Made by a program: the position numbers and the translations under genes
The notes under the pieces: generated by a model
Database searches by the model: none
Told to the model about the DNA's origin: nothing
Seen by the model: only the letters and a program-made list of their open reading frames with translations
Shown: in pieces, positions 19,661-20,008 of the stretch
How positions within the stretch are numbered: position 1 is the stretch's first letter
How the letters are laid out: every line of letters starts with the position of its first letter
Origin: a virus
Taxonomy: Duplodnaviria; Heunggongvirae; Uroviricota; Caudoviricetes
Virus record (IMG/VR): IMGVR_UViG_637000107_000010
Reading direction: 5' to 3' (one strand)
DNA: 64,000 nucleotides

Positions 19661-20008
19661 GTGATGAAGAAAAAATACGAACTGGTTGTTAAAGGGATAA
19701 ATAATTACCCGGATAAGATTACTGTTACTGTGGCACNGGAAATTGGTGGGTATCCGTCACTGTTGTTGCCAGATGTGGCGATTAGTCTTGACCGTACTGA
19801 AGGTGCCACGCTGGAGTTTTACGAAGCTGAGGCGAAAAAGCAGGCGAAGCAGTTTTTCATGGATGTTGCTGCCGGGTTATGTGAAGGGGATGGTCCGTTA
19901 CCGGAAAAGCGTCCCGTAATTTTAGAGGCGCAGGATGTGTTGATAACCTACAGAGGAAAACTACCGGGAATAATTACGGGTTCTCTGAAGACTCCACCGC
20001 TGGCCTGA
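19661..20008 (+). CDS. Hypothetical protein (115 aa) between holin and endolysin
   Basis: ORF starts 2 nt after the holin stop; absent from the other lysis cassette. Confidence 0.4.
   Translation: MMKKKYELVVKGINNYPDKITVTVAXEIGGYPSLLLPDVAISLDRTEGATLEFYEAEAKKQAKQFFMDVAAGLCEGDGPLPEKRPVILEAQDVLITYRGKLPGIITGSLKTPPLA

Follow-up and report, generated by a model that had tools for sequence, protein, structure and literature searches.

A stretch of 64,000 nucleotides of Caudoviricetes DNA (IMG/VR record IMGVR_UViG_637000107_000010; hereafter the window) carries two lysis cassettes, and in the first of these an open reading frame lies between the holin gene and the endolysin gene. This arrangement raises the question of whether the frame is a chance opening in the sequence or a genuine gene and, in the latter case, what kind of protein it encodes and what such a protein might do for a phage or its host when placed at this particular junction.

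Identity, setting and probable expression of the additional gene

In the mechanical list of open reading frames the frame occupies 19661..20008 on the plus strand (115 aa, GTG start), on the strand of the holin and upstream of the lysozyme gene, in agreement with the original prediction. The first cassette comprises the following features.

19371..19407, plus strand: terminator-like hairpin with T-run, upstream of the holin (consensus scan)
19453..19659, plus strand: phage-21-type class II holin (pinholin), 68 codons; Pfam PF04971 'Bacteriophage P21 holin S', E=7.3e-33; RefSeq 'class II holin family protein'
19650..19656, plus strand: Shine-Dalgarno-like GGGAGAG within the final holin codons, read from the sequence; GGAG-to-ATG gap of 9 nt
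19664..20008, plus strand: ydfR-family (DUF1327) gene, 114 codons and TGA stop, from Pfam, RefSeq and an ATG kept in 13/13 loci
19664..19879, plus strand: conserved N-terminal module, codons 1-72, from a 20-sequence alignment (A1) and an AlphaFold2 model; motif YELVVKG...DRxEGxxLEFYEA
19880..20005, plus strand: variable C-terminal tail, codons 73-114 (GLCEGDGPLPEKRPVILEAQDVLITYRGKLPGIITGSLKTPPLA), predicted to be disordered (pLDDT <50, residues 74-114)
20059..20271, plus strand: 5' part (about 71-73 codons) of a phage-21-type lysozyme gene; Pfam Phage_lysozyme, residues 33-72 only; interrupted by ISEc8

The prediction could be checked by homology, which was found in Pfam, in the PHROG collection and in 256 protein clusters. 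The match to Pfam DUF1327 (PF07041) scores 156.2 bits (E=2.7e-46; profile positions 1-92 of 93), the gathering threshold of that model being 25 bits, and the match to PHROG 406 ('unknown function') reaches E=3e-64 with 113 of 114 positions covered. About 1 kb around the frame is 99.7% identical at the DNA level to many Escherichia coli O157:H7 chromosomes, in which RefSeq labels the gene at the same position 'YdfR family protein', with an ATG start, and gives the row as 'class II holin family protein', 'YdfR family protein' and 'lysozyme'. It is near certain that the frame is an intact copy of a YdfR/DUF1327 gene, and near certain as well that in E. coli lambdoid prophages this gene belongs to the late (lysis) operon as an accessory member, located between a phage-21-type pinholin and lysozyme. 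The gene, its family and its position were already known, as they are present in Pfam, in RefSeq and on the K-12 map.

The start codon is almost certainly the ATG at 19664, which gives 114 codons, because this ATG and its spacing of exactly 4 nt past the holin stop are kept in all 13 ydfR loci compared (including the window, O157:H7, K-12 Qin, BP-4795, H-19B, mEp460, Evi, E. ruysiae, E. albertii and Shigella), because the GTG at 19661 is peculiar to the O157/H-19B allele and absent elsewhere among these loci, and because RefSeq places the start at the same codon. The extra gene predicted for the lysis cassette is real, although its length is likely to be 114 codons from the ATG and not the 115 first proposed. 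An N at 19737 makes codon 25 ambiguous, the homologues having Leu or Pro at this position. The GGGAGAG sequence upstream is kept in nearly all of the 13 loci, two of which carry AGAGAG or GGAGAA, and we infer that it acts as the ribosome-binding site of ydfR.

With regard to the genetic setting, the order upstream is antiterminator Q, tRNA genes, a SASA-family esterase and then S, ydfR and R, and these surroundings are those of the late region of a lambdoid prophage. The designation of the cassette as 'P1' is acceptable only in the sense of prophage 1; it cannot stand for bacteriophage P1, the cassette being lambdoid and of the phage 21 / H-19B type. A consensus scan from the holin start to the lysozyme gene revealed no plus-strand sigma-70-like promoter site and no terminator-like site with a proper T-run, the single terminator-like site within ydfR (19744-19759) being weak, with 6 pairs and an interrupted T tail. 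From this absence of a convincing promoter or terminator, together with the 4-nt spacing and the location of GGAG within the holin codons, we infer that ydfR is expressed with the holin from the Q-antiterminated late transcript, and its translation is probably coupled to that of the holin. The K-12 gene has been stated to be co-transcribed with three neighbouring genes (PMC13232886).

The lysozyme gene of the first cassette encodes a hydrophobic N-terminus resembling that of a signal-anchor-release endolysin, and in tblastn it aligns only to residues 1-73 of a 177-aa lysozyme. A copy of ISEc8 (IS66-family) starting at 20272 severs the gene after about codon 73, and within this copy an IS1203 (IS3-family) element has in turn inserted at 21548-22857. 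The window contains neither the remainder of the lysozyme gene nor a matching Rz, and for this reason the first prophage cannot lyse. As the adjoining lysozyme has been destroyed by ISEc8 and no Rz of this cassette lies in the window, the ydfR copy, sitting in a dead cassette, is probably idle.

The encoded protein (computed as 12.4 kDa, pI 5.5) is predicted to consist of a beta-beta-beta-alpha module followed by a disordered tail that differs between alleles. The AlphaFold2 model, based on the 20-sequence alignment, places strands at residues 5-14, 18-27 and 38-43 and a long helix at 50-73, with block-mean pLDDT values of 66-85 over residues 1-73. M1, E46, Y53 and E54 are invariant in this alignment, and the window protein possesses all of its invariant and near-invariant columns. 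The Kyte-Doolittle 19-residue mean peaks at 1.18, indicating that there is no membrane-spanning stretch; no signal peptide or lipobox was found in the protein, and Pfam and PHROGs gave no lysozyme, holin or spanin domain, DUF1327 being the sole Pfam domain. The attributes of a canonical lysis protein (a TM segment, a signal or signal-anchor sequence, a lipobox, a muralytic domain) are all absent from the window protein, which is soluble and acidic, and neither a membrane protein nor a wall-degrading one. At the structural level, no known fold gave a significant match: a sequence search of all solved structures gave no hit at E<=1, Foldseek against viral models gave none at E<=0.001, and no significant structural match taking in the N-terminal RNA-contact helix was obtained to the double-stranded-RNA-binding domain (alpha-beta-beta-beta-alpha).

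Spread of the family and replacement of the gene in the second cassette

A word-indexed search of 5.8 billion proteins yielded the 256 homologous clusters mentioned above, those with a named source all being from Escherichia or Shigella, and an exhaustive HMMER scan of 1.84 billion representatives returned only 56 proteins at E<=0.001. When one genome per species was scanned, ydfR was found only in Shigella, in three Escherichia species (E. coli, E. ruysiae and E. albertii) and in two metagenome bins labelled Veillonella parvula, Bacillota (L013 and L015). These bins carry an Escherichia-like holin-ydfR-lysozyme order, and at L013 the protein matches equal in strength those at the E. coli locus L012. 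Because their gene order matches that of Escherichia loci, the bins are most likely mis-binned Escherichia contigs, an occurrence in Veillonella or Bacillota was discarded, and the YdfR family is restricted to Escherichia and Shigella. The exhaustive protein search also returned two giant repeat proteins (P0141 and P0161, with 14-19 matched stretches), which were set aside, their scores being sums of low-complexity matches to 'TVTVT'-rich adhesin-type repeats.

Within this range the gene is common. Of 5426 complete E. coli genomes, 3159 (58%) contain DNA relatives of the ydfR body, at up to 8 places per genome, and the gene is present in 101 phage records, mostly of Stx1a/Stx2c converting phages, together with H-19B, BP-4795, phage 86 and mEp460. 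The order holin-ydfR-lysozyme recurs in K-12 Qin, H-19B, BP-4795, Stx1a/Stx2c phages, mEp460, E. ruysiae and E. albertii, and the 13 loci compared, which come from phages as well as from E. coli, E. ruysiae, E. albertii and Shigella, all have the gene between a phage-21-type class II holin and the lysozyme. The implication that the cassette carries unusual cargo is not supported, given that this is the canonical and annotated place of YdfR/DUF1327, as seen in Qin, H-19B, BP-4795, many Stx phages and more than half of the complete E. coli genomes.

Comparison with known members of the family reveals a constant beginning and an inconstant end. In Stx phages, the open reading frame that separates S from R (unannotated in H-19B, ORF47 in BP-4795, and present in O157:H7 Stx1a/Stx2c phages) encodes a protein 98-99% identical to that of the window and lies in the same place, although H-19B, BP-4795 and the Stx1a/Stx2c phages have a complete S-ydfR-R-(ant)-Rz series whereas in the window the lysozyme is cut by ISEc8 and Rz is missing. 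K-12 YdfR (b1555, P76160), from the essQ-ydfR-rrrQ-rzpQ cluster of the Qin cryptic prophage, belongs to the same DUF1327 family, and its gene likewise starts 4 nt past a phage-21-type holin and precedes the lysozyme; as in the window protein, a folded N-terminal domain and a separate tail are predicted (AlphaFold description, PMC13232886). On the other hand, the two tails are unrelated, being 30 residues predicted to be helical in K-12 and 41 residues predicted to be disordered in the window, and K-12 ydfR overlaps the lysozyme start by 4 nt, whereas a 50-nt spacer separates the ydfR stop from the lysozyme start at 20059 in the window. Longer forms (gp05 of Stx2 phage 86, 268 aa; E. coli proteins of 176 and 183 aa) are 94% identical to the window protein over their first ~110 residues and add C-terminal modules, including a coiled-coil-like segment, which the window protein lacks. 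Some family members consist of the N-terminal module alone (71-72 aa), and the C-terminal tails are mosaic and unrelated, with protein sizes of 103, 104, 114-116, 176, 183, 206 and 268-287 aa.

Selection was estimated by the Nei-Gojobori method for pairs with unsaturated dS. For codons 1-72 dN/dS is about 0.2-0.65 and below 1 in every informative pair, with some pairs reaching 0.6-0.7, and for codons 73-111 it is 0.08-0.6. Synonymous sites are saturated between O157-type and K-12-type alleles and the protein motif is retained. As dN/dS is below 1 and the motif has persisted despite synonymous saturation, ydfR is protein-coding and under moderate purifying selection. A chance open frame without homologues can be regarded as already refuted, its probability being vanishingly small in view of strong family matches (DUF1327, E=2.7e-46), hundreds of homologues (256 clusters), kept synteny and purifying selection (dN/dS 0.2-0.6).

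The second cassette had been described as lacking the gene and as carrying a different insert at the same point, and both statements proved to be only partly right. It comprises the following features.

56010-55804, minus strand: cassette 2 holin
55768..55800, minus strand: ydfR stub, the first 10 codons including ATG (MNKQYELVVK) followed by TGA, read from the sequence and the two-cassette alignment
55117..55767, minus strand: AT-rich replacement segment, 34-43% GC against 51-57% in the flanking genes; ~640 bp unrelated
55234-55548, plus strand: convergent ORF of 104 codons; PHROG 1853, function unknown, E=3.5e-47, profile positions 57-158 of 159
55116-54583, minus strand: cassette 2 lysozyme
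54247-53783, minus strand: cassette 2 Rz

The body of ydfR is indeed missing from this cassette, but its first 10 codons and a stop survive at 55800-55768, three nt past the holin stop, and read ATG AAT AAA CAA TAC GAA CTG GTT GTA AAA TGA; in the stub region 11 of 12 residues are identical to the start of one family member (P0121). Homology to cassette 1 returns ~45 nt before the lysozyme ATG of cassette 2, just past the position of the cassette 1 ydfR stop, and past the first 10-12 codons the intervening ~640-bp segment resembles no ydfR variant at the protein or DNA level. The idea that cassette 2 arose from a long, phage-86-like ydfR by simple internal deletion is therefore unsupported. Other DNA does stand at the same junction, but it takes the place of the ydfR body and did not enter a virgin site. 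Cassette 2 is therefore a ydfR cassette in which the gene body has been replaced, and not the product of an independent insertion into an empty site; because the stub remains, ydfR, or at least its 5' boundary, preceded the cargo of this cassette. The layout with the AT-rich segment and the convergent ORF is present in 734 of 5426 E. coli genomes. RefSeq lists the convergent ORF as a 90-aa 'hypothetical protein' (WP_000138558.1), and it gave no match in Pfam, NCBIfam or PADLOC; NCBIfam also holds no model for the YdfR protein or the holin.

The predicted variability of the holin-endolysin junction is borne out by other phages. In phage Min27 the junction is empty, R beginning 4 nt after S; in phage Evi a 72-aa YdfR and an unrelated convergent ORF separate S from R; and phage 86 has S, the 268-aa YdfR, a convergent ORF 53% identical to that of cassette 2, and R. 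The junction may thus be empty or may hold ydfR of 72-268 codons, ydfR with a convergent ORF, or a stub with a convergent ORF, and it is a recombination-prone slot. The gene itself is dispensable for phage-21-type lysis, because among 427 phage records with a phage-21-type holin only 101 carry ydfR, because R adjoins S in Min27, and because cassette 2 has S, R and Rz intact and ydfR merely as a stub.

This dispensability is compatible with ydfR being a functionless passenger, kept only for lying between two selected genes while its 5' end forms part of a recombination boundary. The gene is frequently found in truncated, fused or replaced form, its range is limited to a single genus, and selection on it is only moderate, with dN/dS values up to 0.6-0.7 in some pairs. 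However, no informative pair reaches a dN/dS of 1, alleles with saturated synonymous sites still share the start, the ribosome-binding site and the core motif, the gene is intact in the active phages H-19B and BP-4795, and a specific protein interaction has been reported for the K-12 paralogue (PMC13232886). A passenger is accordingly considered an improbable explanation.

Possible functions of YdfR

As late as 2024, K-12 ydfR was counted among the uncharacterised genes (PMC11551758), and a literature search retrieved a single functional study of YdfR, published in 2026 and devoted to the K-12 protein (PMC13232886). The literature searched contains no description of an ORF at the holin-endolysin junction of Stx phages, and DUF1327 is named in a single genomics paper; the term 'YDFR' mostly denotes a melanoma cell line. 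In the 2026 study, a bacterial two-hybrid screen recovered the first 72 codons of K-12 ydfR three times, these being sufficient for a signal, and full-length YdfR gave a two-hybrid signal with residues 1-597 of RNase E (PMC13232886). Furthermore, Rne 1-598 co-eluted with Strep-tagged YdfR, the eluate held DNase-resistant nucleic acid, and overproduction of YdfR altered few transcripts and did not slow growth (PMC13232886). These data rest on overproduction, and the authors leave it possible that a contaminant was involved (PMC13232886); co-purification from lysates could also have been bridged by RNA.

The window protein shares 46% identity with K-12 YdfR over residues 1-74, that is, over the same module as the interaction. 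By analogy, the reading that we favour, at a probability of roughly 0.3, is that YdfR is a dispensable late-gene accessory protein which acts on host RNA decay via RNase E. The N-terminal module would dock on the catalytic N-terminal half of host RNase E, as in the K-12 paralogue; RNA decay would then be adjusted late in infection, for example through the lifetime of phage late or lysis transcripts, and the variable tail may modulate this action. YdfR would play no direct part in the disruption of membrane or cell wall, and lysis itself does not require it. Nevertheless, RNase E binding has been reported for K-12 YdfR only, and a paralogue that is only 46% identical counts against this reading, as do the small number of transcripts altered and the normal growth on overproduction. 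The N-terminal module is also acidic (pI 5.3 in the window, 4.6 in K-12), which is unlike the usual direct RNA binder.

Small phage proteins that target RNase E are represented by T4 Srd, T7 gp0.7 and phiKZ Dip. The decay of host mRNA is stimulated by Srd at an early stage, whereas gp0.7 has kinase activity and the target of Dip is the C-terminal scaffold. Should the K-12 result also apply here, YdfR would resemble these proteins in action only and not by descent; no sequence or fold relationship between YdfR and any of the three was detected. It differs from them in being the product of a late gene, and its paralogue is reported to bind the catalytic half at the N-terminus while changing the transcriptome little.

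A broader proposal, to which we attach less confidence than to RNase E binding itself, is that YdfR proteins are genus-restricted two-part late proteins, in which a constant 72-residue RNase E-docking module would be joined to a fast-swapping tail that sets the effect or target of each allele, the first ~35 nt of the gene acting as a recombination boundary for cargo exchange between S and R. If this is true, the lysis cassette of Stx phages and of other lambdoid phages would include a means of tuning RNA decay and perhaps also the timing of lysis and toxin release.

Alternatively, YdfR could have a role in the timing of lysis, as its strict linkage to the pinholin might suggest. In such a scenario, which we hold to be possible but somewhat doubtful, a cytoplasmic YdfR would act on the pinholin (for example on its charged cytoplasmic C-terminus) or on the export or release of the signal-anchored lysozyme, and would thereby advance or delay lysis. 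The position of ydfR, 4 nt past the phage-21-type holin and before the matching lysozyme in 13/13 loci, is consistent with this, although it may merely reflect descent and a shared recombination boundary. In addition, a K-12 ydfR deletion strain scored in a genome-wide screen for envelope leakiness (PMC3879167 supplement), but the leakiness could be a polar effect, as we would surmise, of the resistance cassette on the downstream lysozyme gene. Both window holins and that of H-19B lack an upstream antiholin ATG, making another regulator conceivable; yet ydfR also occurs beside dual-start holins (Qin, BP-4795, Evi), without correlation with antiholin loss. YdfR has no membrane segment, signal peptide or lipobox, and about three quarters of phages with a phage-21-type holin lack the gene, both of which speak against a lysis-timing role.

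A benefit to the lysogen has also to be weighed, in which ydfR would be a 'moron' expressed from the resting prophage under stress (cold, stationary phase) and would serve host RNA metabolism or the response to envelope stress. Cryptic prophages that are unable to lyse, namely Qin and the first prophage of the window, retain an intact ydfR, and the highly mosaic C-terminal tails are of a kind often seen in accessory cargo. Expression databases show cold induction of the K-12 cluster (cited in PMC13232886), which in the case of Qin may, as we see it, be read-through from adjoining cold-shock genes, and a ydfR probe set (CFT073 c1434) is among the sigma-S-preferred in vitro transcripts (PMC3141248). 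Against this, the gene has no plus-strand promoter-like site of its own and forms part of the late operon, downstream of a terminator-like hairpin, read counts in standard culture are near zero (PMC13232886), and there is no match to known defence-system proteins. In the latter respect, neither the O157-type protein nor K-12 YdfR nor the product of the cassette 2 convergent ORF matched a PADLOC profile at E<=0.1, and a role in a defence system was dropped. Overall, a moron function appears unlikely.

Whichever function applies, YdfR is among the most widespread uncharacterised E. coli prophage genes, and it sits in the lysis cassette of Shiga-toxin phages, where the timing of lysis governs toxin release. 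A role of YdfR during induction, once shown, would fill a small gap in the biology of lambdoid phages and might bear on Stx release. The first biochemical lead, RNase E binding, dates only from 2026. The window ydfR as a finding changes nothing, the gene and its place being known already.

Holin starts and wider organization of the window

Both holin genes of the window open with ATA CAT CAG ATG (19441-19455; 56008-56022, minus strand), and the holins of K-12 Qin, BP-4795 and Evi have ATG-x-x-ATG at that position. The upstream start of the phage 21-type antiholin is thus missing in both window holins, as it is in H-19B and in O157:H7 strain 4276. A link between the presence of ydfR and the loss of the antiholin start was examined and rejected, ydfR being found with both types of holin.

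The two prophages share paralogous lambdoid segments, 4258-19699 corresponding to 31454-46869 and to 56331-55765 with 81-96% identity, and the holin module of the second prophage continues on the opposite strand, from 56331 down to 55765. The breakpoint is occupied by a copy of IS1203 (46868-48177) in the opposite orientation to that at 21548-22857, and this inverted copy, together with the strand switch of the holin module, suggests an IS-mediated inversion or rearrangement of the second prophage. Three copies of ISEc8 are present in the window (from 20272, at 25577-28022 and at 57022-59461). The region upstream of the esterase gene contains the following RNA genes.

16395-16467 and 16551-16624: two tRNA genes, upstream of the esterase gene
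16737-16945, plus strand: small RNA STnc100, 175 bits
16947-17006, minus strand: anti-GcvB small RNA AgvB, 56.6 bits, just at threshold

The window also contains 93 N bases, clustered in stretches that are duplicated between the prophages (e.g. 18022-18058 and 45763-45808), and these may mark differences between the paralogous copies in the source assembly. Close to one such N cluster, the esterase gene (17094-18961) falls into two frames.
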